From: Rhizodiscina lignyota
Lineage: Eukaryota
DNA: 64,000 nt
NCBI GenBank assembly: GCA_010015805.1
Contig: ML978138.1
Span: 372,001-436,000, forward strand
Reading direction: 5' to 3'
The notes below the pieces were generated by a model, which worked only from the letters and a program-made list of their open reading frames with translations, was not told the origin of the DNA and did not search any database. Below are positions 38,648 to 56,398 of this stretch, piece by piece. Position numbers and translations under genes: made by a program. The first letter of the stretch is position 1; each line of letters begins with the position of its first letter.

Positions 38648-41600
38648 ATGGCTTCCAACTTGCCGCCGAACCCAACGAGGGAGGACATTGAAGATGAACT
38701 TGCCTTCCTGCAAGTTCGCCACGATACGTAGGCGCCCTCTGCACGCGCCCAAGGCGGCGGGTATATAAGCTAATACGTCTTGCAGACTTGAGCCCGATGC
38801 CGTAGACTACGAAACCGATAAAGGCAGCTTGCAGAGGGACATGGAGGAATTGGAAGCGATGCTCGGCAACATGCAGAACCCGCGCAACAATGGAGCTGGA
38901 GGTTTCACGCAACACGCAGCCTCTTTGTCGGCAACAAACGCTTACAATGGCCTTTCAACGGCGAGCCTTTCAACGCCAACACGAGCAACCGCTCAACACT
39001 ATCGCCCTTCTATAAATTCGGGTTCCACTATTCCTTCTGCATCGAGCTCCTCTTCCCTCTCTGCAGCGAATAACATGTCACGCAAGCGACCCTACGACGG
39101 TAACAATTCACACTATACCCTTACTGCTGGCGATGGCGATATGAGGATGAGCAAGTCATCGCGGACAACGCCTAGCCCTGGCCCCTCCACGCCTGGCACA
39201 ACTGCGTCGGAAGATTCGCTAGAGTATTTGGGCGAGCTTTTGAACCAGCAGCCTACGTCTTCGGACCCTAGCGCGAGACAGCGGGTCATAGACCGCCAGC
39301 GCCACTCTCACCAGAGAGTACTCCAGCAGTTCGAGCAGAGTAAGAGGGATGCAGAGTTAGCTAGGCAGCTGGAACGAGGTATTCCTGTGAGAGCTCCACA
39401 GCCACAGAGCGCAAGCCAAGCACTTTTGAATCGTAATGGAGGCTTTAAGGTGCCAAAGGCTCCTACACCCACTCCACAAGTCTTTGCATCTTCGAGCAGT
39501 CAGACCTCCAACCCTTTTGCATTTGCTGGATCGGGAGCCCCTCCTTTTAACACTATTTCTCCTCAGCTTACGCAGCAGGTTGCGTATCGTCCTGGCCATC
39601 TTGCAGTGCCGCCTATGGAGCTGTATCAAACACCCATCAAACCAGAACAGCGCCTCAGATCAACACCGACGTTGACTAACCAAGCACAGCCGCGATGGGG
39701 AGCAGATGCTAGTGCTCCCAGACCACAGACTCAAGATAGCGACTCATCGGACCTGGAAGAGATCCCGCCAGAGGTGTTTGCCCGCTCAAGTGCTAATAGG
39801 CCACCTCCTCCACATCGCCAAAGCATGCCAGGAGCTTTCCCTACTGCGAACTCTTTCCCAGTCCCTCAGCCGTATTCTGTCCCAGCGCCGTCTACTCCTT
39901 TTGCTAGATCTAACGCCTATTCTCCATATCCAGGCGCTGTGATGCCTCCTGCGATGATTGTTCCTTCCAGGCAATACGCGCAGGATGAGCTCCGTGAGAT
40001 GATTAGAGCTCGTCATGCACATATGGGCGGTCACCTTCCGGATCTGGCTGGGCTTCGCGATACCATCTTCTCAATCTCGCCAAATACAGTCCCTAGCTCT
40101 GCTTTTGGACTCAATCCTCGAGCCCCATTGTACATCGATAGTGACGATGACGATGACCCTTCTTCGCGATACAACCACTACTACATGACGGCGCAGGAGC
40201 AAGAAGAGGAGATAAAGAAACTCATCGAAAATATCAGGCCTGACGAGGAAGCTGACCCTACCAAGCGCGAACCCACCCCTGAAGCGATGAATGATAAGTT
40301 ATACCCACATCAGCGCTTAGCTCTCACATGGATGAAGAACATGGAAGAAGGCACGAACAAGGGCGGTATTCTAGCCGATGATATGGGTTTGGGGAAGACG
40401 ATTCAGGCTCTCGCGCTTATGGCTACAAGGCGCTCTGAGGATCCACGGAGGAAGACGACTTTGATCATTGCTCCTGTTGCTTTACTGTCCCAGTGGGCAA
40501 GGGAGATTACAACAAGGCTCAAGTCTGGTAAACACTCGTTATCCGTCTTCATCCATCACGGGCCAAGGAGGAAGAAGTCATTCAACGAGCTCAAAATGTT
40601 TGACGTTGTGTTGACAACTTTCGGAACACTTGGCCAAGAGCTGAAGAGGCTGCAAGAGTGGCAGAAGAAGCAGGCAGCAGATCCTGATGCGTACCTACCA
40701 CCGGCTCAGAATGTTCTGCTCGGAGATAATTGCAAATGGTACCGCGTAATCATTGACGAGGCTCAGTGCATCAAGAACCGGACAACTAAAAGCTCGATGG
40801 CCACTTGTGAGATCCAGTCCATCCATCGATGGTGCATGACGGGCACGCCAATGATGAACGGACTCAGCGATCTCTTCGCTCTTGTTCGTTTCCTAGGGAT
40901 CAAGCCTTTCAACGACTGGGACATGTTCAACAAGGAATTCATCAAACCCATTAGGGGTAGCGACATGCCAGACCTTCGCGCTGCTTCGATGAAGAAATTC
41001 CAGGTCTTCATCAAAGCTATCTTGCTTCGTCGCACCAAGACATCGCAGATCGATGGGAAGCCGATCTTGGAGCTCCCGCCTCGCATTGTTGAACAGAAGC
41101 ATGCGATCTTCAGCGAGGACGAGAAGAACTTCTACGATGGCCTGGAGAAGAAAACCCAAGTCACCATCAACAAGTACCTCAGGGAAAATACCGTCATGAG
41201 ACACTACTCCAATGTCCTTGTGCTTCTGCTTCGTCTGCGCCAAGCTTGCTGCCATCCGCATCTGATCAAGGATTACGCACAAGCTGAGAATATCACCGAC
41301 ATTCCAGAGGACCAGCGTCTCACTCTTGCGAAGAAGTTGCCTCCCGATGTCGTCGAGCGCATCGTCGCTGCAGGGGGCGCATTTGAGTGCCCAATTTGCT
41401 ATGATGGTGTTGACAATCCAGCCATCATGTTTCCCTGTGGCCATGATACATGCATGGAGTGCTTCGTCAAGATCACTACTCCAGAGCAGGGCATCGCTGA
41501 AGGTGATGAGAATGGCCAGGCAAAATGCCCCCAGTGCAGAGTAAAGGCGGATAGGAACAAGGTGGTGGACTATGAGACTTTCCAGAAGGTTCATGAGCCA

Positions 41601-42549
41601 GAAAAGTGGGCTGAGAAGCATCCAGATGCGGGCAACTCGCAGGAAGATGACGACGATACTGCCGACGAGACTGAGTCTGAAGACGATGACGACGAGACGG
41701 AGAGCTTGGATGGCTTTATAGTTGATGATGATGTTGAAACTGACCCTGACGCCGACGAGGATGAGCCGAAACCGAGCACAAAGGGCAAAGGGAAGATGAA
41801 GCCAAAGTCGAAGAAGAAGGGCTCGAAGGGCAAAGGAAAGGCCAAGGCCGCGCCGAAGCTCACGCTCGCCGAGCTCAAGAAGTTGAGCCTGCGCAACAAG
41901 GCTTCGAAGCGAAAATACCTTCGCCGTCTTGAGAAGGACTGGGTCACCAGCAGCAAGATCGACAAGACGATCGAAATCCTCAAAGAGATTGACGAGAATG
42001 ACCCTGAGGAGAAGACGATCATCTTCAGCCAATGGACTAGTATGCTCGATCTGCTTGAGGTCCCGCTCCACAGGCAGGGCTTCATCTGCCAGCGCTACGA
42101 CGGTAGCATGGACGCAACCCTTCGTGCCAATGCTGTCGAGGAGTTCATGACCCAGTCAAGGTGCAAGGTCATGCTCGTCTCGCTCAAGGCCGGAAACGCG
42201 GGACTCAACCTCACGGCTGCCAGCCAGGTCATCATCCTTGACCCCTTCTGGAACCCGTACGTTGAGGAGCAGGCTATTGATCGAGCTCACCGTATTGGTC
42301 AGCGCCGCGATGTGCACGTGCATCGTGTGCTGGTTGCGGATACGGTCGAGGACCGCATCATCTTGTTGCAGAACCAGAAGCGTGACCTTATCGGTGCGGC
42401 TCTGGATGAGAATGCGAGTAAGGATTTGGGCAGGTTGGGTGTCAATCAGATTCGGTTCTTGTTTGTAAGTATTGATCCGGACTTGAGTTGCTTGGGCTTT
42501 ACTAACTTGTCGATAGGGCCTCGGCGGCAATCCCACTGCGCAGGGCTGA
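38648..42549 (+). CDS. SNF2-family helicase with RING finger (Ris1/Uls1-like, Rad5/16 group), 3 exons
   Basis: GGILADDMGLGKT, IIDEAQ, CMTGTP, LLRLRQACCHP, RING CPIC...CGH..C..C...CPQC, SLKAGNAGLNL and QAIDRAHRIGQ. Introns 38728-38785 and 42465-42516. Confidence 0.92.
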
Positions 42550-43149
42550 GAAATTAGCGGGCACGCGTAGACTAGGCGGGAAGCGTTTCGAGACGCGAGG
42601 TGTTGGTTCGGAGTTGTTTCTCTCCTTTGCTGCCCTGCAGATAGCTTTAAGCTCTGCTTTCATTGCTTTTACTTCGTGCACAAGGTGTGCAGAATGGCGT
42701 CGGCATAGATCCGCTACGCATTTCTACCTTATTTCAAGCCCTGATTGCCCGTTTTCCTTCGATGTATTTTTCACTACTGGTGGGGAGGCCTTCTGCGGAT
42801 CTGACACGGCGCATACGAAAGGCATATGATACCCGCACGCCGCATGTTCTTTTTTCATTGTGCTATTCTCGGTTTTGTTTGACTTGCTGGAGTCTTTCTC
42901 GAATCATGGTTTGCGCTTAACGTGTCATAGCTTTCGATGCTCGCAATAGCGAAGGAGGCTCTTTGCTGCATGGTTACTGAACTGTATAGCAGGTAGAGAA
43001 TCGAGCTTGATATGTTTTCTCTAGACCTCGCGGCCATCTGACTTGACCTTTGAAGCAGTGAAATCTACAATACACGTGTGACGGCGCGAAATTGCAATAA
43101 GCTCTATGGAGTATGCTCCGCCTACGCAATGCGAGCGACCAGGCGTTCT

Positions 43150-44660
43150 GCTGATGTCGCTCTTCAACCCGAGGTGCGTACGCCCGTAAAGCTTCATGTT
43201 TCTAAGTCTTGTGGTCAAACTGGCTCACCGCGGCTGCTGACTGAGCGCGTGTTCAATTGTTCTTGGAGTTTACTTGTCGTAGCTTCGCGAACGTGGGAAA
43301 ATTCTTTCACTTAGTGCGCAGTGTCTCCTCTTGGGTGGCTGTATATGTGCGCGAAGAGAAACAGGCTCCTCCGAATGCGTACCGCGCAACTTATTATACA
43401 GTATGCAGATGTATGTATCCAGCACACTCTACCACTCCATGCGCAAGACATTCGTGCGTATAGTCTCCGGTCGTGAGTCCTTCCGGCCTCTTTGGGATAT
43501 GGTGCGAGGCGGATGCGAGGCAGATAGTCACGTCTTCCGGCAGCATGCTTGTGTCGAAGATGAATTGCGACGTAGGAATGTCACTTCCGCGCATCTTGTA
43601 TAGAGAAGGGACTCCGGGTTGAGTTTACTAACAAGCAAGCGACCGGCTGCCCTGACGATATAGCTCTTCAACTTAAAATACCCAAAAGGAAGTGCAGCCT
43701 TCTTCTCATCCCTGCCCTCTTCTTAACCCGCAGTACGTCTTGTTAGCCTACTGATGTCGCTCTTCGATCCAAAGACCGCATGCCCATAGAGGATGGTGTT
43801 TCTAAGCCTTGCAGCTAGAAAAAGTCAACAGCGACTTCTGCTCGAGCACGGATTCGATTATATCTAGAGGGTGCTTATTGTAGCTTCTCGGACTTGGGAA
43901 AATTCATGAATTTGGTAAGAAGTGTGACCACTTACCTAACTGTATATGTACGCGAAGGGAAACAGGCTGCTTAAGAGTTCGTGCTGCGTATAGTTGGTCT
44001 ATGTGAAGTGAGTGTCTAGCTGCTCTGCGAAAGTCGTTCTTCAACCCAAACACTCAGAGACGGAAGTGCGGCCTCCTTCGTCCTCCTCGCGTTCTTCGTC
44101 GCTTCCTCGAGCAGCACTAAATCTGCTTTACTATAGTGGCCGGATTCTCTTATGGCCTGGGTATAGTAGCTCTCCCCACTGTCCAGATCTCGCCCGGATC
44201 AATGACGTGGGTCTCGACGACCTATTGGAGGGTGTCATATCTAAATCGGCCACAGCCGTGGGATTGGTCTCCGCCTCCCCTAGGGCACCTCCTCGAAGGG
44301 TCGACGGTAAGTGTATACCGCTACATTAGTACTTGATATACATCTCTTTCTTCTTGCCTCTCTTTAGTATTTGTGCCAGCTCCGTGTCAGGGTCATGCTC
44401 CGCCACAAAAGTGTCATTTTGAAGCAGTCTGGATCCGGTTGTACTGCGAGCACCAAGACCATCTTCGCCTACGTGTAGGGTCACGGAGGCTCATGTTTCT
44501 AAGTGTTATTGTTAGTAAAGATTAGCTGCGACTCCTGGTCGAGTGTGTATTCGATTATATCCGGAGTCAACTTGTTGTTACTTCGTTTTGTAGGAGGTAT
44601 GTCTGCTTATCTAGTAGTCCTATGCACGCTAATAGAAACAAGCTGATTAAGAGATCGCAC
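43150..44660. repeat. Three degenerate dispersed copies of a ~230-bp unit
   Basis: Shared anchors: CTGATGTCGCTCTTC at 43151 and 43751; TGTTTCTAAG at 43197, 43797 and 44494; GTATATGT.CGCGAAG.GAAACAGGCT at 43341 and 43942, with a weaker copy (TATGCACGCTAATAGAAACAAGCTG) at 44621. Confidence 0.75.
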
Positions 44661-44969
44661 TCCCACAGTCGGTGCATGTGAAGAAAACGTCTATGTACAT
44701 AGTTTATACACGAAGAGGAGTAACTCCCATCCCACTCCTAGCTTGGACTAAAATGCCAGTTACTGGGAGCTCGGATCAGGAGATCAGCACAAGGATCGCG
44801 TCCCCAGCACAGACATTCCGCGTCTTGCACTCATGAGACAATCCAGCCTTCAGAAACAGACAGCTGGGAATTGCCGCAAAAATGCGGCGTATTCCAATGT
44901 CTTCGAGCTCTCCGAGCTCTTTGAGCCTTCTCCATATCCAATTGACTTTCAATCCTGCCTCAGCCAAAT

Positions 44970-45971
44970 ATGTTCGGTTTTTTCGAACCAACTTTCCATC
45001 CAGACACTGATATCCCAGACCTTGCGGGCAAGGTCTTTCTAGTTACAGGCGGTAATAATATGTACTCATTACAGTATTTTGCGATGAAGTATTCGACTAA
45101 CGCTTCATCAACATCGACAGGAAATGCAGGACTCGGGAAAGAAACTGTCTTGCGACTCGCGAAGCACAATCCGCGCAACATCTTCCTGGCTGCGCGAGAC
45201 AAGATGAAAGCTGACGAAGCTATTCGCGACATAAAGAAAGATGCCCCAAATGCGACCATTACACATCTGTCCCTCGATCTCGCTTCTCTGAAGTCCGTTC
45301 GCGCCGCTGCCGAGACCGTGATATCTACTACGGATCGATTAGACGAGCTCATCAATAACGCTGGGGTGATGGCAGTACCAGCGGCCGTAACGCAAGAGGG
45401 CTACGAGATCCAATTCGGCACGAACCACATCGGCCACTTCCTACTCACGAAGCTACTACTCCCACTACTCCAACGAACAGCCGCGTTGCCAGATTCAGAT
45501 GTGCGAATCGTGAACCTGAGCTCTGGGGGGCATATGCACCCGCCATGGAGCGGTATACTCTTCGACGGTAGCTTAGAAGGCACGATGGAGGCATATAACA
45601 CATTCGTGCGCTACGGACAGTCCAAGCTGGCCAACATCTTGCATGTCCGAGAGCTCGCGAAGCGGTATCCGACCATTAAGGCCATTGCAGTTCATCCCGG
45701 CGGCGTGAACACAAATCTCAGCGTCACCTTTCAGAAGAACCATCCCTGGGTTGGCATACCAGGCGCCTACTTGCAGAGTTTCGTGTTGAAGACGGCGGAG
45801 CAAGGTGCCTTGACGCAGCTATGGGCTGCAACGAGTCCGGATGCCGTGAGCGGAAAGTACTACGTGCCAGTCGCGAGGGAGAATTCGGGTTCTGCATACT
45901 CGCGGAATCCAGAGATGGCAGCGAAGCTGTGGGACTGGACGGAAGAGCAGCTGGCAAAACATGGGTACTGA
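44970..45971 (+). CDS. Short-chain dehydrogenase/reductase (retinol dehydrogenase/WWOX-like), 2 exons
   Basis: TGGNAGLG after removing the 69-bp intron 45052-45120, plus LINNAG, QFGTNHIGHF, YGQSK and VHPGGV. Confidence 0.93.
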   Translation: MFGFFEPTFHPDTDIPDLAGKVFLVTGGNNMYSLQYFAMKYSTNASSTSTGNAGLGKETVLRLAKHNPRNIFLAARDKMKADEAIRDIKKDAPNATITHLSLDLASLKSVRAAAETVISTTDRLDELINNAGVMAVPAAVTQEGYEIQFGTNHIGHFLLTKLLLPLLQRTAALPDSDVRIVNLSSGGHMHPPWSGILFDGSLEGTMEAYNTFVRYGQSKLANILHVRELAKRYPTIKAIAVHPGGVNTNLSVTFQKNHPWVGIPGAYLQSFVLKTAEQGALTQLWAATSPDAVSGKYYVPVARENSGSAYSRNPEMAAKLWDWTEEQLAKHGY

Positions 45972-45975
45972 GCCG

Positions 45976-47469
45976 TCATATGATAACAAACGTCTCTTCT
46001 GGGAATTCGCCTTTCTCGTGCGCATCCATTGCCATCTGCTTTGTTGTGTCGTTCAGGTAGCATGGGCCGATCAGCGTGTACTTAGTATCAGCTGACTCAT
46101 CCGAGCGTAGCATGTGCGGTAGTTCGGCATCGGGAAAGAAACAGCAGATGTCCCCTACTTTCGTCATCCCTGGGCCTAGGCCAATATATCCGTTGCTGCA
46201 CACGAAAAGACGTCTCTTTCGGGCGCAACTCACAGCCCGCAAGGTGAAGTGGGAGTAATCCGCCGGGCTAGGGTGGACTTCGTCTTGGATCTCCGCTGGG
46301 AGACTGTCCTTGTCAAAATCGGAAACTAAGTGCTCGAATTCTTGAATCCATTTTATAAGGCAGGGCTTTACATCGGTAAGTTCGAAGTGGGCGAATTGCG
46401 CTATCATAGTGAGAGCCAGCGATTCCAACAAGTCATCATACACAGACGAGCCAAACTCTTCGCGGTGCAGGCGCCGCAAGGTATCGATGAATGGGTTCTT
46501 GGTCTCCCATCCCGAGCGCTTGTGGGGCTCTCTGACAAAAACGTCGTTTCTTCTGATCGATGCCGACACATGGGACACGGTGCCAAGTTTGAAGCCTTGG
46601 GCATGCAGCTCAGTTCGATCGCGGATTGAAAAGTGGTAGCCTGGTTTTCTTCTGGGAGATTCACGAAACGGAGAATTCGGCTGCAGTTTGGACTGTTGAG
46701 TTTCATTCCATTGCGGACACCAGGACGGGCATTTGCTTTCTGGTGCGTCTCCAGTGCAAACCCCAGCGAAGGAAAGCAGGTTCAGCGTCTGCCGCGTTTG
46801 TAACCATGAGATGGCAAAGTCAAGGTATACATCCTCAATGGATTTGGTGTAGTCAGGATGGATTGTTGTCGCTAGCAGCGGATGCGCGAGAAAAGCATAA
46901 ATGTAGTCTCGTGGGTTTGATGCCTTGTACTTTTGTCTTGCGCAGTCCAGAGCGAATAGAAACGCTTCGGAGTGTCTCATCCATTCTGTCGCCTGGCGAT
47001 GGCTAATGTCGTAAGATCTCCACATGACGCCGGACGTAAGTCTGGGCACATCTCGATACTCGTTCTCAATCCTAAGAGCATATCTCTTATGGCTTCCAAA
47101 GAAATACAGGACCTCCATGAGGTCTCTCCAGTCCAGCCTGTGTTCGCCGTACAAAATAACCGCCTCATCGGCGAGCCCTACTTCCTGGACGGTCCACGCT
47201 CTAGAAAACCACGGCATTCGTGTCATGCGGTCCAGAGCCTCCCAATTCAGCGATGCGAACTCTGATTCGGGGTCGTTGATTTTCAAATTCACCTCCGGTC
47301 CGTACTCGTGAATCAAATGGATCAGCTTCTGGACGGATTCGATCGCCAGGTGGGCATCGCCATGAACGTCCGGTCCGACATGAATGAGCACCCGCACAGC
47401 AGCTTTGTAGATTTCACCCATATGAAATACCTGATGACTGCGCTCTTTAACGTTGATTTGCTCGATGCA
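45976..47469 (-). pseudogene. HET-domain (heterokaryon incompatibility, HET-6-like) gene, 3' half, separated from its 5' half by an insertion
   Basis: Begins CIEQINVKERSHQVFHMGEIY, then PWFSRAWTVQEV, ASNPRDYIYAFL, PSWCPQW, RRLFV..NGYIGLGP..KVGDIC and YTLIGPCY. The frame is open to the stop at 45976. Confidence 0.9.
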
Positions 47470-48549
47470 TATCGCAACGAAACATGAGCGCGGCAACCAA
47501 GTCCATTTCATGTGCCATTACCGCTAGTCCCATTTTAGACGTAAAGAAACATGACTAAGTGCATCGTAATTACCTGACTGCGTCTCCTCTGAACGCGTGA
47601 GATTGTCTAAATCGAAATTCTATTAGCAATAGATACCCCAAAGTTTATTCATTAATTACCGCGAGCTCCCTAACTAACGAATTTATACCTTACTACTATA
47701 TTAGAGTTCTAGAGTCAGCATCGAGTAGCAGATAATTGGCGAAAGTCTACCCATCTACCGGCTCATTCCTAGTTGAAGAGACGTGTTTGGCGACGGGTGT
47801 AGCTGCGTCAATGACGTGAGCTATTTCAGCGTACATAGATTGCGGTTGTTCATGCTTTGAGCTTGCGAATTTGTCACTCATTTCCTAGAAATGACTGATC
47901 TCATTTACCCTCGAAAGGGGCAAGTGCTGGAAGTCTGGTGCCTTTCCTGCTGTAATCCTCATCTTTCCAGCATAGATGTACTCCTCAGTTAGTCAAAACC
48001 CCGACACATTTCTGTAGTAACGATCACGAAACCTTTGGCCGGTTAGGACCTCAAGACAGCAAAATCCGGCAAGGCAAAGTTCAGCTGTCATGAATGCATG
48101 CAGACTTGCATTTGATGACAGCGACTTTCTTCTGAAATGTGGCTATAATAGGGTGAGACTTTTATTTTGGACGAGCCAGTTCCTGCAAGGAATCGAGAAC
48201 ATCGCTGCTTTAGTGGCGAGGTATACTCTATTCTGAGACCATACGGAGCAGTTTCTATTCCAATGGACCCGTAATCTTGTTTCATCTGCTTCTACGACAA
48301 CCCAACCTTGTTTCCATATTCAGCATCCGAGCTCATAGCTTCCCCAGATCACCGCACTCTTTTCATATCCCCAAGGTCTTTGATGGCTGCTTCCCCTCTC
48401 CTCACATCAGTCTTTCGTCAGACGACTCCATAGATATCTGCAGAAGATATTGTGTCTGAGAAAATTGTCATGTTCATCTCGGACTGGCAGCCGTAGCTAT
48501 CTTTAGCGAATGTAGGCGAAGTGGAGAGGAACTCTGAATGCGACTACGG

Positions 48550-48560
48550 TATATAAAGAG
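48550..48560 (+). promoter_or_regulatory. TATA box of the repeat-precursor gene
   Basis: TATATAAAG about 150 bp upstream of the ATG at 48699, followed by an A-rich then pyrimidine-rich leader. Confidence 0.45.
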
Positions 48561-48698
48561 TTGAGACGATGCTAAGGAAACCTTCTCTTCATCGGCTCAT
48601 TCAGAAAAACAAAACTAATACAACCTTTTCGTTATTTTTTTCCATTTTATTCCCTTTTCCCTAGCTCCTAGATTCTAATACTAGTCCAGTCATTCAAG

Positions 48699-49889
48699 AT
48701 GAAGGTTTCCGTGTCAGTTGCGATCCTCGCGTTCTGCGCTGCTCTCGCTGTTGCCACGCCAGTCCCGTCTACTAGCGGCGAGCAAGGATTGACCAAGCGC
48801 GGTTTTGGCTTCGAAAATTTCAACAACGAGCAGGACGGTGGCCGCGGCGATAACTTCAATAACGAGCAGGACGGCGGCCGAGGCGATAATTTCAATAACG
48901 AGCAAGACGGTGGCCGCGGCGACAACTTTAATAACGAGCAAGGACTCCGCAAGCGCAGCAGGGACAACTTCAACAACGAGCAGAGCGGCAGCGGCCGCGG
49001 CGACTTCAACAACGAGCAAGGCGGCAGCGGCGATAACTTTAACAACGAGCAAGAGGGTGGCCGCGGCGATAACTTTAACAACGAGCAAGGAAAACTCCGC
49101 AAGCGCAGTAGGGACAACTTCAACAACGAGCAGAGCGGCAGCGGCCGAGGCGACAACTTCAACAACGAGCAGAGCGGCAGCGGCAGCGGCGACAACTTCA
49201 ATAACGAGCAGAGCGGCAGCGGCAGCGGCGACAGCTTCAACAACGAGCAGAGCGGCAGCGGCAGCGGCGACAACTTCAATAACGAGCAAGGCGGTAGCGG
49301 CGACAACTTCAACAACGAGCAAGACGGTGGCCGCGGCGATAACTTCAACAACGAGCAAGGAAAACTCCGCAAGCGCAGCAGGGACAACTTCAACAACGAG
49401 CAGAGCGGCAGCGGCCGAGGCGACTTCAACAACGAGCAAGGCGGCAGCGGCGATAACTTTAACAACGAGCAAGAGGGTGGCCGCGGCGATAACTTCAATA
49501 ACGAGCAAGGAAAACTTCGCAAGCGCAGCAGGGATAACTTCAACAACGAGCAGAGCGGCAGCGGCCGAGGCGACAACTTCAACAACGAGCAAGGCGGCAG
49601 CGGCGACAACTTCAACAACGAGCAAGAGGGTGGCCGCGGCGATAACTTCAACAACGAGCAAGGGAAACTTCGCAAGCGCAGCGACTTCTGCAGCAACTTT
49701 AACAACGAGCAGATTATGCCGGTCCCCTCTTACGTTTACAAAAAGTTCCCCACCTTCAAGGGCTACTATTTGGTGCACGCCTCTGCCACCGCCACCGCCT
49801 CCGCCTCCTCAATCGCCGACGATTCGTTCAGCAACTTCCAGTCATCGGGAGGAGATGGGCAATCGTTTAGCAACGTACAGATCAACTAA
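48699..49889 (+). CDS. Secreted Kex2-processed repeat protein (KEP-like) with 24 FNNEQ repeats
   Basis: Signal peptide MKVSVSVAILAFCAALAVA, pro-peptide ending LTKR, five (K)LRKR sites separating blocks of 4, 4, 7, 4, 4 and 1 (D)NFNNEQ units with G/S/R/D linkers, and C-terminus GQSFSNVQIN. Variation between repeats is mostly at third codon positions in this frame (AAC/AAT, TTC/TTT, CAG/CAA). Confidence 0.9.
   Translation: MKVSVSVAILAFCAALAVATPVPSTSGEQGLTKRGFGFENFNNEQDGGRGDNFNNEQDGGRGDNFNNEQDGGRGDNFNNEQGLRKRSRDNFNNEQSGSGRGDFNNEQGGSGDNFNNEQEGGRGDNFNNEQGKLRKRSRDNFNNEQSGSGRGDNFNNEQSGSGSGDNFNNEQSGSGSGDSFNNEQSGSGSGDNFNNEQGGSGDNFNNEQDGGRGDNFNNEQGKLRKRSRDNFNNEQSGSGRGDFNNEQGGSGDNFNNEQEGGRGDNFNNEQGKLRKRSRDNFNNEQSGSGRGDNFNNEQGGSGDNFNNEQEGGRGDNFNNEQGKLRKRSDFCSNFNNEQIMPVPSYVYKKFPTFKGYYLVHASATATASASSIADDSFSNFQSSGGDGQSFSNVQIN
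48816..49712 (+). repeat. Coding tandem repeat (33-48-bp units nested in ~150-bp higher-order blocks)
   Basis: The core (G)ACAACTTCAACAACGAGCA recurs 24 times with variants; blocks are delimited by CGCAAGCGCAG. Confidence 0.95.
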
Positions 49890-50684
49890 TTTTGAAGCGC
49901 CTGATTGTCTCGCCTTAGCTGCTGGCGTGAAGGAACTGCAGCACGTGTGGATTTTGGTGAAATCTCTATGTTGTCTTCTTGCTTATGTGGAGCATTTGCG
50001 GTCACCGTTGCATGTCAATTGCCTCATCTTGTTTGACTTTCTCATTGTTTTTATTCTGGGCTTCCGACTTCAGCCACTCATTCTACCCGACCTCAAAAAG
50101 GCTCGCGGAAAGTCGATCTGATCTTTGCGAGTTCTGGCTTTCACGGATAATAAAATTTAAATACCATAATGCTTTCTTGAACATAGACAACGATCTTATT
50201 TGACCAGGGAGAATGTTCGAGTGAACGACTAGGTGTAAGGTCGACTGGTGGACCAAACAGAAAATCTGTTAGAAGACTGAGTTAAGGGTTAGGAAGCTAA
50301 GTGAGGTTTCTTAACGGTAGATCGAGGCCAGATTTTTCGGCTTCCGAGAGGGTACTCTAAGATCGATTTTCGGAAGCTTGTTGGCGCTTAAATTTCGTTT
50401 CTGTCTGAGAATGTATAAATTTACGAGAGTTACTAACGTCAGTAATGGAAATGTATTCATACAACACATTGAGAGTTGCTGAAGCTATGAATCAACAATT
50501 AAGAGTAGCTTCAATGCCTCCATAATGTCCGACCCGAAAGGGACTACCTATCTCAGCGAGCGATAGGAGTTTGACTTAGTCGCCAAGAAGATCAAGAACT
50601 TCAAAAGCACGACAATGACTTCGGAAATTCATCGTGAAATCTCAACGATCTAATTGGACTATCGCTGAAAGCTCAGCATGCTAA

Positions 50685-51152
50685 TTACATTATTACCTCC
50701 TCAAGTGCCTCTTCCAAATCCCTATCAATGATGCTCACGTTGTTGCCATCACCGATCTCGGTGACAGTATTCGTAGTTTTCCCGCTGTTATGGTCGCTGA
50801 TGGAGACGTTGTTTCCATCCCCATCGATATTGACATTGTTGGTGTCGTCGCCGCAGTTGCCATCGCTAATAGATACATTGTTGGCATCGCCCTTGGTACT
50901 GACATTGTTTGTAGTCGAGCCCTTCTTGTTGCCAGAGCAGGTCTGGCCCCCAGTATTTCCATTGTTGACTTGAGTGTTGCTGATTTGGGTGCCACCACTC
51001 CCGTCTCCGCCCTGTTCGTTGTTGAAATTGTCGTTGCCGCTTCCGCCATTGACTTGAACATTTGAGATTTGTTTCCCATGACGCGGGAGTGGGGCGGCGC
51101 CGACGAGGACAATAGCAAAGAAGCTTGCAGTGAGGATGCTAGTGAAACGCAT
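50685..51152 (-). CDS. Small secreted Asn/Gly-rich repeat protein (155 aa), partner of the KEP-like precursor
   Basis: Signal peptide MRFTSILTASFFAIVLVGA. Contains QISNVQVN, DNFNNEQGG, QISNTQVN, three GD(A/G)NNVSI repeats, NNVST, NNVNI, two Cys and an acidic tail. Confidence 0.85.
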   Translation of the reverse strand: MRFTSILTASFFAIVLVGAAPLPRHGKQISNVQVNGGSGNDNFNNEQGGDGSGGTQISNTQVNNGNTGGQTCSGNKKGSTTNNVSTKGDANNVSISDGNCGDDTNNVNIDGDGNNVSISDHNSGKTTNTVTEIGDGNNVSIIDRDLEEALEEVIM

Positions 51153-52143
51153 CTTGATTGTATTAAACAATAATTGTAGAGAAAAACGCCGCAAAAGAGT
51201 GACTTGTGAGATCCGAAATTCCTAGAGATTGCGCCTTTGAAAACTACATAAGAGGGTAATGTTACGCTTTAAATCTCTGGGAGGGGGGAAAATCCTTGTG
51301 CTGCTTACTGCGTGTTGCGGCGGTGTGCCCGTAATGCTAATAAAGCCTTCTTGCGAGTTCCTCAAATAGCCCTAAGCCCAAGGCCTTACGTATGGAAGGT
51401 CTAAGAGAACTCGTAAATTGCTCACCATGTATTACTCAACTTAGATCACCTACCCCGTAAACAGAGATTTGGTAAGGACCCATCTAGTCAGAAAATATTT
51501 ATAGCTATTACGGTGTATGACAGGGCTTGTATTACCGCATCCCGGTAACTGCATTAACTCCGTCAAAACTACGCGCCCTACCCCTCTTGTCTGTAATCGA
51601 CGTCAAAGAGTGTGTCATTTGAGTGCTTTGTTACAAAAGATTCTGAAGGTAAAGATCTACACTAAGAACGCCCGTGGCGAATATACACAGTTCCCGATCG
51701 GGAACACCCGGGCCGGATAAATCTATTTCCGGTCCCGTCATCTGAAATCGTGTTCGTGCACCTTGTTCACAATTCAAAGATATCGAGGAGGTCACGTGAT
51801 GCTGGTCGCACACGCGAATTTTCGAAAGCCTACTCCTCTATAATTAGCGTATATATAAGTATAAAAAGTAGATAGATACGCGTAGAAAGGCTTGACTTGA
51901 AATCAAATAGAGCGCTTTTCTCGAATTCAGTCGTGGGCGATTATCATAGAGTTGTAAAATAGAGCATGACCAAAAATTTGAAGAATTTGATGGGGGTTCG
52001 CAGGCTAATTAGGTAATAACTAGCCTAAAGGAATTGTCCTTAGGTAGGATAACAGCGGCTTTTCGACTTGGTGAAACCCCTTAAGAACCTAAGGTATAAA
52101 CCTCATAGATATGAAGTAAGTCATTATGTTTCGTTGCAAATAT

Positions 52144-52760
52144 ATGCAGATGGCGTCTGCCCACAAATCAAGCGCTTGTGAAGTGCTTCGGATCCGCCGA
52201 AGAGCCACTTCGAGAGTCTTTGTGATTTTTAATTTGCAACCATTGCAGAGGATTTCGACGCTGTCGGAAACGTTCCCCCAAACGTAGGAAATAGCTTGGT
52301 AGTCTGGTCCCGCGCTCGTCCTTTCGATGCGCAGATCGCATTTGATGGGATCGTCTCGTTGGCCTGGATATAGTCGAACAATACGAATGGAGTCCTCATA
52401 TGGAAGCGCCTGATAGACGGATTTCTCCCCACTCGAGAGTGTGGAGAGTGTGGAGAGTGGTTCCCTAGAAGCATGTTCCGCGATGTTCAGCCTTGCCAAT
52501 TGCGGGACATTCTCGCCGCGACCTCCAGTCGTGTCACCATCTTGCTCTCGTCTCGAAAATGTCCCCTTGCTGAACGATAGGAGATGCCCGAAGGCCGAGC
52601 AGACTTTCTGTATCATCAAAATGTCTTTAATATGCAGAATTGAAGACGAGATGCCGTGGGACGTTACACGAGGCTGTATATATTGACTGCCTTGAAAGCT
52701 GCGCCACGAATGGCTTGAGGCTAACCCGTCATAGGATTGCATCCATGTCGCGCCAGGCAT
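52144..52760 (-). pseudogene. HET-domain gene, 5' half
   Basis: YQALPYEDSIRIVRLYPG, YQAISYVWG, ITKTLEVALRRIR and LWADAICI form the canonical HET N-terminal half, which stops at the insertion. Start ATG could be 52760, 52742 or 52616. Confidence 0.9.
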
Positions 52761-52859
52761 CCGGGATATTTAGTATTTCGTAAGGACGCATCTCGGAAGT
52801 GTAAGGTCCCGCAATATAAAGAGTTTGTTATCATTCAGACGATAGAGGAGATATCACAA

Positions 52860-55800
52860 TCATGCGAATCGCACTTCACCAAACATACTGGCCCTCACTT
52901 GCATCAGCGCAACGAGCTCCAGCTCGAACTCCTGCAAGATGACCGCATTCGTCAGGATATGACTCAAGCTCGCCTCTCTCAACGCTTTATCCGTCTTCTT
53001 CTCTTCTGACTTTGCGCCTTCAGTGTCTGCGTCAGGACCCGCCTCCGCTCCTGTCGCAAACTGCTTTTCACCATCAGCCACCTTCTGGTTGTCTTTACTC
53101 CCAAACTGGAATCTCCTCTTCAAAATCTCCGCATCAGCTTCCCTTACAACGTCGTTCAGCAGAGCTCTCGGATCTCTCACAGCCGCGTTCATGCTCTCCC
53201 CTGGTCTAGGGCTCTGCGCCCTCGATCGCGCCTGTGGCGTCGCCGGACTCCTGGATCCAAGCAGCCCATAAGAGCCCAAACCCTGCTGTTGTTGTGGCGT
53301 CGATGACCCTGGACTACCACTCGGTGGAACTTTGCTCTTAGAATTGCTGCGTGGCGTCCTAGGAGGACGTGGAGAATCTCGCGACCCGACACTCGCGTCG
53401 CCGCCGATGCTGCGCTCATAGTCGGCCAGCATGCGCTGTGCGAGATTCAAAGTCTTGCCGACGCCAGGAATAGGCTTGCTGGGGCTTCCACTGCCGCTGA
53501 TACTGCGTTCGTATTCGGCGAAGATGCGGTCTGCAATGCTTCGCTTTCCGTCCTTTGGCGCCGGTGTACCTGCTTGGGACCGTGGAGGAGATGCCTGGGC
53601 AAAGTCTTTTGGTGGGACGGGAGGTGGTGCGTTTGCGATAGCTTCTGATATTGCATCGTACAGACTGAATGCTTGCCGGCGTGCGGTAAGGAGGACGTCA
53701 AAGTCTGGGACTGCAGCGCGCACAGATGAGAGTTCCGCATGAATTGCATGTAGCGCCGCGAGAAGAGACGGGGTATTCCGTCGATACCAATTCGGTCTAC
53801 GACGGGCAAGCTCTAGGGCTGTTATATGGTCCGCCTCCGTTGGTAGAGCCCCATTTGTAGCTGTCATTGATTGAGATAGCGATTGAATCGAAGATTCAAG
53901 GTTGGAATCTGTGTCATGATACACGTATTTCGATGGCTCGACGGATAGCCATCCTTCGAGTAGCAGATGTCCGCATGAGGCGAGTGTGATAACTGTCTCT
54001 GTGAGGCCAAGATTCACCTCGACGTTATTCGTCAAGAAAGTCTCGAGGACCTCCAGTGTATACCGGAACATGCTATCGTCAGGGCTTAGATGATGGGTTG
54101 TAGGTTCTCGCAGACAGATGAGGCTTGAGTCTGCCTGCTTTGGGGCAAATCCAAGCTCGTCCAATTTTAAAATTTGGGCCGAACAAGTGTGCGACTCAAG
54201 GAGTTTGAGCGCATCCTTCAGATGGCTTTCGTAAGCTTCATCAAGGCCAGTGTCTCCGATTGTCTTGGCGAGGTCAAGATATGCGTCCATCTCCGCATTG
54301 AGACTGCCATGTGTTCGATGGATTTCCTTGTTGGAACTGAATGAAACTTTGACGAGCGAACCAATGCCGTACGTGTGGTTCTTGCTGAGTATGATCGAGA
54401 CGAGACGAAAGGCTGCAGTGACAGTCTGCTGGTTGTTTGAACGGAGGCTGCTTAATATCAAGTCGACCAGACTGAACAAAGAGGGGTTCAACTGTTCATC
54501 ATCCTTCGGATTGCTCGCAAGTAGCATAAGTGACCGACGCCGCCGGACGAGCCGAGGGGATGCAGATGATTCTTGAGGAAGTCCATTCATGCCTTCCGGC
54601 ATGGCTAGAAGGTATTGCAGCATCATATGAATTAGTTCCGGATGGTCGAGTGCTTCAAGAATGCGTCGAAGGTACATCAAAACCGCAACAGAGGAGCCAC
54701 CGTCAGCATCAGAGGACTCCAAAAGAGATGGGTATCTACAAATCGTCAGTGAGGGTGAATGCGGGAGGGGGCTAGACATACAGTAACTGCTGCAAGAACA
54801 AGACTTGGAAATGATCCAATAAGGTCTGCCGGACATCAATAGATTTGCAATGCTCCAAAACATCTTGCCAAAAGGTCAAGTATGATAGAAACGTGTCCAT
54901 GTGGGTCTTGAGGTTTGGAGAGAAGAGGCTCTCAGCATCGCCAGCCGGCGGTCCTTCTGCATAGTCCGAGAGCACAAGCACGATCGGCATGTCCTCTTTT
55001 GGATGGACAATTGAGAGTTTTCTGATCCATATTAGCATATTATCTCCATCAGAGTACAGACCTCATACCTGCTGAGCTGGCTATACAGCGCGCCCAACCC
55101 AGTGGCCATCAAAGTCGGGATATCACTCTCAACTAACCACTGCTCCAACTCATCGCTCTTACTTGCGCTCTCAAACACATACAGCAGCCCCGTCCTCGCA
55201 AAGTCCCCGATTCTCCCCCCGTGATGCACGTGGTCAATAAGCTGATAGCACAACGGGAAATCCTCCTTCTGCGTCACTCCCGCAAAGCCCTGCCTCCTCC
55301 TCTCCCTATCCTTCTCTAGAAACTCGCTCTCCGAAATCACATTCCTCTGTCTGAACCACACGGGCAGGATCTCCGGCTGCAACCTAATCTTCGCCGTAAT
55401 GCCAAACAGCAGCTCCACAACCTCGACCTCCGTGTCCTCACCCACGAAGATGCCGCCTCCGCCTCCCGATGAAATCCGATCCACAAACCCCATCAGCGAC
55501 TGCGCAAAGCGCTCGGCCGCGAGAAACTCCTCCTCCTCGCTGTCGATGAGCGCGCCGAAAAAGGCGACCGCCTCGCGAATGACAGACTCATTGTAGCACG
55601 CGCTCGCGATGCGCGCGATCGTGATGTAGATCTGGGCGGAGGCGGCGAAGGAGAGGGAGAGATGCGGGGCTGGAGAACGGGATTCATCGTGGAGGATGGT
55701 GGTGAGGCGTTGGAAGGAGACGCGGATGGACTCGAGGGCCTGGGGGTCGTTGTGGAGGGCTTGGGATTTTTGGACGGTGTGCTGGAGAGCTCTTAGAATT

Positions 55801-55999
55801 TGAAAAGTGTCGGGGGGTATGTGGGAGGGTGTGTAGTACCAATAACCGATCGTAAATCTGTTGGAAGCGTGCCAGGCGCTGTTTGGGATTATTCGATGCT
55901 GAAGATGGCTTGTTGCCTCCGCCGATCAGGCGCGAGAACTGTGGAAGTCAGATACTCTTGTCTCAAGTGAGAGCCTCGTGGGGCACTTACAAAGTCCAT
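52860..55999 (-). CDS. fhipA: FTS/Hook-interacting protein (FHIP/FAM160, RAI16-like), multi-exon
   Basis: MDF|FSRLIGG start, VVELLFGITAKIRLQPEILPVWF, GRIGDFARTGLLY, LMATGLGALYSQLSR, FLSYLTFWQDVLEHC, YPSLLESSD and C-terminal LSHILTNAVILQEFELELVALMQVRASMF. Confidence 0.88.
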
Positions 56000-56398
56000 G
56001 TTGCGATTTATAGCGCATCTTGTCTGCGCATATTCTCACTGAAATGTTCAGGCGGTAGAGGTGTACACATGCATGAAGCTGTGGAAATAATGCTGGGCTT
56101 CGTTTCATGGGCTTGAGGCTTGGGCGTGGGCCAATGACGTACAAGATGTCAAAAGGGTGTGGTTTTCGAAGAGATTAATGAAACATGTCTACAATTATTA
56201 AATCTATATAGGCACAATTACTTGTATCATAATCAAATGTGAATATCCAAGCTTCGCGCCCGCTGTAAACACGCAAGCCTGTAGTGACAAGGCCCATCGT
56301 CTGCAACTGGCCACATTTACATATCCATCAAGGCATATCACGGGATTCCGATCCAGAACCTTATGTTGACTACCTCTCTTGTTGACAACTCTTCTCAT

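Follow-up and report, generated by a model that had tools for sequence, protein, structure and literature searches.

A putative Kex2-processed repeat precursor and its secreted-looking, probable paralogue on a small inverted-repeat insertion in Rhizodiscina lignyota

What are two convergent genes for secreted-looking proteins doing on a small insertion that splits a fungal HET-domain gene, and do their products belong together? The question arises in a stretch of 64,000 nucleotides from Rhizodiscina lignyota (assembly GCA_010015805.1, contig ML978138.1, positions 372,001 to 436,000 of the forward strand), which is referred to here as the window and to which all coordinates apply. The insertion is 4675 bp in length, is bounded by terminal inverted repeats (TIRs; 47470..52144), and carries a gene for a large protein, P0001, and one for a small protein, P0002. 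P0001 has 396 amino acids and is encoded on the plus strand (48699..49889), starting at the first ATG of a stop-to-stop frame at 48672-49886. P0002 has 155 amino acids from the first ATG at 51152 and is encoded on the minus strand (50685..51152), so that the genes converge, with their stop codons 795 bp apart. The original prediction, made from the letters alone, had taken the pair for a mobile two-component extracellular amyloid, in which the large protein supplies the fibre subunit and the small one nucleates or anchors it. According to the best explanation of the locus, P0001 and P0002 are a lineage-restricted pair of paralogous secreted proteins in a fungus with an ascomycete-type genome, and a non-autonomous TIR insertion of 4.7 kb carries their genes. 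Probably, P0001 is secreted and cut by the Kex2 protease into five acidic, Asn/Gly-rich peptides and a tail piece, is accompanied by P0002 as a secreted, solenoid-like paralogue, and has its function outside the cell. The most fitting label for the locus is that of an orphan Kex2-processed repeat protein (KEP) that has a paralogous partner and rides with it, as cargo, on a non-autonomous TIR element.

The large protein has the layout of a precursor, with a signal-peptide-like segment (residues 1-19/20), a short pro-region up to TKR34, a repeat array and a C-terminal tail. In the leader, residues 3-19 have a mean Kyte-Doolittle hydropathy of 2.55, compared to -1.71 for the remainder of the protein, and the hydrophobic core ends at AVA, directly before TPVP. 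The array comprises five KR-bounded blocks (48801..49679, plus strand), located at residues 35-86, 87-136, 137-226, 227-276 and 277-327. These blocks are 52, 50, 90, 50 and 51 amino acids in length, each ends in RKR, and together they cover 293 of the 396 residues. Each is made up of four to seven sub-units of 11-13 amino acids and contains, in order, 4, 4, 7, 4 and 4 FNNEQ units. At the DNA level, Tandem Repeats Finder describes the array by a 36-bp unit and also detects 150- and 420-bp higher-order periods, with 87-89% matches. The tail of 69 amino acids (residues 328-396; 49680..49886, plus strand) is not repetitive, and holds one FNNEQ, a degenerate SFSNFQ and then, at its very end, SFSNVQIN.

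KEPs are recognised by a signal peptide and by internal repeats, three or more in number, that are separated by KR, RR or KK and make up at least 15% of the length (PMC6339444, Le Marquer et al. 2019). With its leader, near-identical repeats, dibasic KR sites and 74% repeat coverage, P0001 is by sequence a KEP in every one of these respects, its cleavage being predicted. It differs from described KEPs in that the searches found no sequence relative and in that its blocks are themselves 4- to 7-fold arrays of 11-13-residue sub-units; in addition, a neighbouring paralogue carries its unit, and the gene sits on a TIR-flanked insertion. The closest functional analogue of P0001 is Rep1 of Ustilago maydis, which is described as a precursor cut at KR sites into peptides that assemble into amyloid fibrils on aerial hyphae (PMC3133707). 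The Rep1-like architecture proposed in the original prediction is borne out by the five RKR-ended blocks, and the likeness, that of a pre-pro-protein divided into several peptides on its way through the secretory pathway, lies at the level of architecture. The predicted P0001 peptides differ from those of Rep1 in being strongly acidic and Asn/Gly-rich, and general database searches return no homology. Furthermore, the Rep1 text consulted describes no partner gene (PMC3133707), whereas the P0001 gene has that of P0002 as its neighbour.

The coding frame of P0001 bears the mark of constraint. The 24 FNNEQ cores have three variable columns, and every one of these is a third-position, synonymous change. 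Pairwise comparison of blocks 2, 4 and 5 yields 4, 7 and 5 synonymous codon differences and no non-synonymous one. As the changes between blocks are synonymous only, the P0001 frame is under selection, and since the variation is third-position and synonymous in this frame, only the plus-strand frame from 48699 behaves as coding. The repeat array also keeps open three further long open reading frames (ORFs) of 345, 354 and 438 amino acids, on both strands at 48668-50121; they are a by-product of its periodicity rather than genes. Both P0001 and P0002 have A at position -3, and TCAAGATG is common to their two starts. Upstream of the P0001 start, at a distance of about 149 nt, a TATA box, TATATAAA, can be read (48550..48557, plus strand), which may serve as part of a promoter.

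Once the basic residues are removed, the predicted P0001 peptides are 47-87 amino acids in length, with a net charge of -5 to -11 and an isoelectric point (pI) of 4.05-4.21; about 28% of their residues are charged. The linkers of P0001 (residues 48-320) contain RGD 11 times, as GRGDNF or GRGDF, while other linkers read GSGD or SRD. The RGD could simply follow from the composition, or it could be a motif of the adhesion type.

The small protein, P0002, also begins with a signal-peptide-like segment (residues 1-19/21), in which residues 3-19 have a mean hydropathy of 2.08, compared to -0.99 for the remainder. The leader is followed by three units spaced 14 amino acids apart, ISNVQ at residue 29, FNNEQ at 43 and ISNTQ at 57, and by NNV(S/N)I repeats. 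The sole Phe of the mature protein lies within its FNNEQ unit. A Gly/Asn-rich link follows the three units; its KK at residues 75-76 (50925-50930, minus strand) divides the three-unit region from the repeat domain, and is a weaker possible Kex2 site that could split P0002 in two. The domain contains three strand-turn-strand repeats of about 23 amino acids, GDANNVSISDGN, GDGNNVSISDHN and GDGNNVSIIDRD, at residues 88, 111 and 134 (50724..50918, minus strand), formed by six NNV(S/N)x strands. Consistent with this, self-comparison of P0002 gives its best offsets at 23 and 46. The GD(A/G)NNVSI repeats of the original prediction are recovered here, as G[DN][AG]NNV occurs three times in the window, always in P0002 and at these three positions, with a 23-residue period.

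The two proteins resemble each other in the units they share. Among the six frames of all 64,000 bases, FNNEQ is confined to the P0001 and P0002 genes. The counts first given, 24 FNNEQ in the large protein and exactly one DNFNNEQGG in the small one, hold; DNFNNEQ occurs 19 times in P0001. The second shared motif, SN[VT]Q[VI]N, occurs three times in the window, as the last six residues of P0001 and at residues 30-35 and 58-63 of P0002, in agreement with the earlier observation that QISN(V/T)QVN is found twice in P0002 and matches QSFSNVQIN at the P0001 C-terminus. Among 200,000 shuffles of mature P0002, FNNEQ appears in 12, SN[VT]Q[VI]N in 110 and DNFNNEQ in none. The sharing of motifs between P0001 and P0002 is far beyond chance. 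It extends to the DNA, where the DNFNNEQGG unit of P0002 (51006..51032, minus strand), which is involved in all of the inverted-repeat pairs I1-I14, is identical to the first P0001 unit at 24 of 27 nucleotides. The local DNA score of the shared unit is 39, while 200 shuffles have a mean of 18.8 and a maximum of 26. Furthermore, the unit lies 113 and 119 nt after the ATG of the respective genes. The first 50 residues of the two proteins are collinear, with AxPxP at residues 19-23 in both, and their global alignment score of 48 is reached by none of 2000 shuffles, a null that also destroys the hydrophobic block. With a best BLASTP E-value of 4e-4 between them as well, P0001 and P0002 look, by sequence, like paralogues.

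Structure prediction makes a solenoid-like fold plausible for one of the two proteins. The AlphaFold2 (AF2) model of P0002, made without an alignment, is all-beta with a mean predicted local distance difference test (pLDDT) of 50.7, and places short strands throughout the repeat region (50724..50918) at a pLDDT of 53-62. The ESM Atlas model has a pLDDT of 0.56, and its solenoid-type neighbours, at template modelling (TM) scores of 0.47-0.65, are an unnamed bacterial cluster (0.65), a DUF2807 adhesin head (0.50) and an RTX protein (0.47). Foldseek finds no PDB match to the P0002 model at E <= 0.001. With VIA-align, 28 of 48,161 PDB representatives reach Z >= 5, and those listed are mostly beta-helix or solenoid proteins. 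The top match is the Escherichia coli CsgA fibril (8enq_A), at Z 8.4 with a root-mean-square deviation (rmsd) of 9.2 A over 98 aligned residues; according to the tool, models that lack a real counterpart usually reach a best Z of 7-8. Beta-helix and solenoid proteins come next, at Z 5-7.5. A solenoid-like fold of P0002 is plausible on these models, while the CsgA match is too weak for a specific link to curli. P0001 is predicted to be purely disordered (pLDDT 35.1) with no secondary structure, and a complex prediction of mature P0002 with P0001 residues 87-133 yields no verdict, at a score of 0.00. The strand-turn solenoid that had been proposed finds support in the 23-residue repeats and low-confidence solenoid-like models of P0002.

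The statement that neither protein family could be recognised also withstands searching, as no family or relative appears in any protein, metagenome, PDB or Pfam search. A word-indexed search covered 5.8 billion proteins with lengths 0.55-1.75 times that of the query. For P0002 it gave 1113 candidates, none at E <= 0.01; for P0001, 8000 candidates were scored without yielding a relative; and the P0001 tail (residues 328-396) gave five candidates, none at E <= 0.1. A full phmmer search of P0002 against 1.84 billion representatives has no match at E <= 0.001, and phmmer searches of the PDB with P0001 and P0002 have none at E <= 10. Scans of metagenome contigs, with confirmation by tblastn, produced 595 and 18 pattern matches and no relatives. 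Pfam contains no family matching either protein at E <= 1, including the Curlin repeat (Curlin_rpt). These collections include few unannotated fungal genomes. The ESM Atlas contains P0002 letter for letter, with no usable feature match. With P0001 it scores at most 0.82, which is under the range considered reliable, and the Ascomycota hypothetical clusters found in this way serve as a lead only. In the literature, a text search for 'NFNNEQ' returned nothing, and FNNEQ, NFNNE and SNVQ are absent from the searched supplementary tables of PMC6339444 and PMC7329392, whose PDF or other supplements could list them. RTX and hexapeptide repeats were considered and rejected, as Pfam gives no match and, judged by eye, their spacing is different.

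The element that carries the genes is well delimited. When the left end is aligned locally with the reverse-complemented right end, the alignment identifies a left TIR of 16 nt, TATCGCAACGAAACAT (47470..47485, plus strand), and a right TIR of 19 nt, TATATTTGCAACGAAACAT (52126..52144, minus strand). The 13-nt core of these repeats occurs in the 64 kb only at the two ends of the insert, and none of 100 shuffles has two or more matches. A TGCA read from the sequence on the left (47466..47469) and right (52145..52148) represents the target-site duplication. Its length is ambiguous, since 4-5 bp and, if one mismatch is allowed, 8 bp both fit. The guanine-plus-cytosine (GC) content of the element is 0.472, with 0.42-0.44 in its non-coding parts and 0.51-0.53 in the flanks. 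These features bear out the original prediction in that the genes lie inside a discrete insertion, one with inverted-repeat ends.

The insertion splits a gene with a HET (heterokaryon incompatibility) domain. The 5' half of this gene (52149..52760, minus strand, in an ORF at 52089-52760) matches positions 1-58 of the HET profile at a Pfam E-value of 2.6e-10, and the 3' half (45976..47469, minus strand, in an ORF at 45976-47511) matches positions 54-146 at 5.3e-14. In-silico removal of 47470-52144 and one TGCA produces a single ORF of 701 amino acids with no internal stop, which reads D-A-I-C-I-E-Q, the HET core, across the junction. Two other readings of the site were rejected: a 'TA' or 3-bp duplication would give the wrong HET frame, and an intron lacks splice-like ends and would be too long at 4.7 kb. 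Because both HET halves are still open, the insertion is probably recent; the element would have landed cleanly and, in doing so, recently inactivated an allorecognition-type HET gene. Both junctions are bridged by contigs of a single DNA sequencing run, which may be the source of the assembly itself, and neither an alternative joint nor an empty site was seen in the contigs of that run.

Apart from P0001 and P0002, the element has 41 stop-to-stop ORFs of at least 35 amino acids. None of the 41 reaches the Pfam cut-off, and two have sub-threshold matches at E-values of 0.038 and 0.086. The two secreted-protein genes are therefore the only convincing ones in the insertion, as had been stated, and with no transposase-like ORF the element appears to be non-autonomous. 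No Rfam family was found at 44000-56000, and a literature search for fungal TIR families that duplicate TGCA gave nothing usable. A dikaritin-type (ustiloxin-like) ribosomally made, post-translationally modified peptide (RiPP) cluster was rejected, as there are no UstYa/DUF3328 or other tailoring genes, no other ORF of the element reaches the Pfam cut-off, and the flanks are the HET halves. A precedent for secreted cargo is ToxhAT, a TIR element of 14 kb that carries the gene for the secreted protein ToxA (PMC12506042). The Rhizodiscina element resembles it as a TIR-bounded DNA element with secreted-protein cargo, and differs in being 4.7 kb in length, in having no transposase remnant and a 4-bp TGCA duplication, and in occurring once in the window. 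With two complete genes for secreted proteins on a transposase-free TIR element of this size, and a HET gene knocked out by its arrival, the locus illustrates in compact form how a fungus could, in one step, move a cassette of secreted proteins and alter its vegetative compatibility.

Taken together, these features can be arranged into a probable course of events. The signal peptide of P0001 would be removed first, followed by cleavage in the Golgi after the KR at residues 34, 86, 136, 226, 276 and 327. Trimming of the basic residues would then leave five acidic, Asn/Gly-rich peptides of about 47-87 amino acids with 4-7 DNFNNEQ units each, and the C-terminal piece of 69 amino acids would also be released. 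P0002 would be secreted as a protein of about 134 amino acids, in which the three 23-residue repeats, preceded by three copies of the unit type found in P0001, probably stack into a small beta-solenoid. The peptide product would be extracellular or located at the cell surface, and it is a guess, weakly held, that P0002 associates with it through the shared Asn-rich units.

Several points weigh against this account. The P0001 model is fully disordered, and both models of P0002 have low confidence. The exact sequences of P0001 and P0002 are absent from a collection of 15 billion proteins and no search has found a relative, so that conservation beyond this genome is absent as functional support. 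The synonymous-only pattern between P0001 blocks depends on few sites, and the signal peptides and Kex2 cleavage were judged by inspection only. In the absence of a transposase, and with one copy in the window, mobility is deduced from the ends and the restored frame alone. On the side of expression, the sequencing runs listed with this stretch are one of DNA and none of RNA.

Peptides derived from KEPs are widespread, and for most of them the function is unknown (PMC6339444, PMC7329392, PMC9769878). KEPs themselves are common in fungi, nearly all without a known function, and in the texts consulted Rep1 is the one described as amyloid-forming. This background is compatible with a different reading of the locus, held to be rather unlikely, in which the two genes work independently. 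P0001 would then yield diffusible bioactive peptides or effectors, aimed at some other organism or at the producing fungus, and their action could depend on the 11 RGD motifs or on Ca2+ bound to the acidic Asn/Gly units; P0002 would be a diverged paralogue with a role of its own. The soluble-looking, acidic and disordered character of the peptides suits this reading, as does their RGD content, and the ToxA gene on ToxhAT is an example of an effector gene carried by a TIR element. However, RGD is not found in all of the linkers and may be a by-product of a G/R/D-rich sequence, and the retention of the unit at a matching position in the neighbouring paralogue hints at a link between the two proteins. 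Both the RGD and the Ca2+-binding readings are leads obtained by inspection.

The amyloid pair of the original prediction is considered unlikely. According to this reading, the DNFNNEQ peptides form the fibre subunit and the P0002 solenoid nucleates or anchors them through ISNVQ, FNNEQ and ISNTQ, as CsgB does for CsgA, with the whole system being mobilised by the transposon. In its favour, the units combine a high Asn/Gln content with an aromatic residue, strand-turn-strand repeats of 23 amino acids are present in P0002, the CsgA fibril is the best of 48,161 PDB representatives for the P0002 model, and the KR-cut peptides of Rep1 set a precedent (PMC3133707). On the other hand, the CsgA match has a large rmsd on a poorly scored model and a Z within the range seen without a true match, Foldseek and the Curlin repeat search are both negative at the thresholds given above, and P0001 is predicted to be fully disordered. 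Strong negative charge disfavours amyloid formation at neutral pH, and the predicted P0001 peptides carry such a charge throughout. The most specific version, a transposon-borne two-gene extracellular amyloid in which Kex2-cut, Asn-ladder DNFNNEQ peptides are nucleated or anchored by a paralogous mini beta-solenoid with the shared unit at its exposed end, is judged to be distinctly unlikely. Of the two-component secreted system first proposed, the convergent, secreted-looking genes and the sharing of units beyond chance remain, while the mechanism of amyloid subunit and nucleator stays a hypothesis.

The locus can be compared with two known kinds of amyloid pair. The curli proteins CsgA and CsgB have strand-turn-strand repeats of about 19-23 amino acids that are rich in N, Q, G and S, and they have this repeat architecture in common. 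P0001 and P0002 resemble them as two related secreted proteins and in the best PDB neighbour of the low-confidence P0002 model, but have one unit type in common rather than a common repeat architecture. In addition, the secretion route is eukaryotic, with no equivalents of CsgE, CsgF or CsgG, and P0001 is a predicted Kex2-cut, disordered polyprotein, unlike a solenoid of five repeats. Membership of the curli family fails on the absence of a Curlin repeat signature at a Pfam E-value <= 1. The second kind comprises the fungal pairs of NOD-like receptor (NLR) and effector, such as NWD2/HET-S, HRAM, PP and sigma, which are described as adjacent genes with a motif of about 20 amino acids, N-terminal in one product and C-terminal in the other, that acts through templating of a fold (PMC5485727). 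The placement of SN[VT]Q[VI]N, which is N-terminal in mature P0002 and forms the very C-terminus of P0001, echoes this arrangement and is a further point in favour of an amyloid pair (PMC5485727). However, the products of those pairs are cytosolic, with NACHT or NB-ARC and HeLo-type domains, whereas P0001 and P0002 have leaders and no Pfam domain. An NLR amyloid-signalling pair is rejected, as NLR and HeLo domains are lacking and the two products have the look of secreted proteins. If the amyloid reading were true, eukaryotes would have in this locus a mobile analogue of CsgA/CsgB, and the NLR/HET-S templating pairs would have a counterpart outside the cell.

It is very improbable that the two genes are functionless passengers, either young or in decay, whose array grew by slippage or unequal crossing-over in the transposon and whose open frames are incidental: the lack of relatives, the long ORFs kept open in other frames as in simple repeats, and the 150- and 420-bp periods typical of recent expansion would fit, but only the plus-strand frame from 48699 combines a hydrophobic leader and regularly placed RKR boundaries with a tail outside the repeats and an ATG that follows a stop by nine codons, differences between blocks are synonymous only (4-7 versus 0), as is all variation in the FNNEQ cores, and the two starts have A at -3 and their common sequence, with a TATA box upstream of P0001. 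If the genes were untranscribed passengers, the locus would be merely a curiosity. As an orphan KEP with a paralogous partner, it is unusual in three respects: the arrays of sub-units within the KR blocks, the convergent paralogue that carries the P0001 unit in front of a solenoid-like domain, and the small TIR carrier. The presence of a KEP unit in a neighbouring solenoid-like paralogue provides a testable case of extracellular assembly from peptide plus template.

The surroundings of the element are those of a fungal genome, with HET domains and a RAI16-like protein, both identified by Pfam, adjoining the insertion. The RAI16-like/DUF5917 protein is encoded at 52860-54863 on the minus strand. 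On the other side, an ORF resembling a short-chain dehydrogenase, with an apparent in-frame intron (44970-45971, plus strand), and an ORF resembling a SNF2/RING-type helicase (38829-42557, plus strand) were named by inspection. As these flanks look like ordinary core genes, the element appears to sit in a gene-dense, non-repetitive region. Within its right non-coding arm, the contigs of the DNA run break at 51615-51634, and the summed word depth is 202-219, compared to about 160 around it (51423-51824). The contig break and raised depth hint that a short stretch of this arm is repeated elsewhere in the genome. The GC-rich palindromes CCCGATCGGG and CCCGGGCCGG are located at about 51695-51718.

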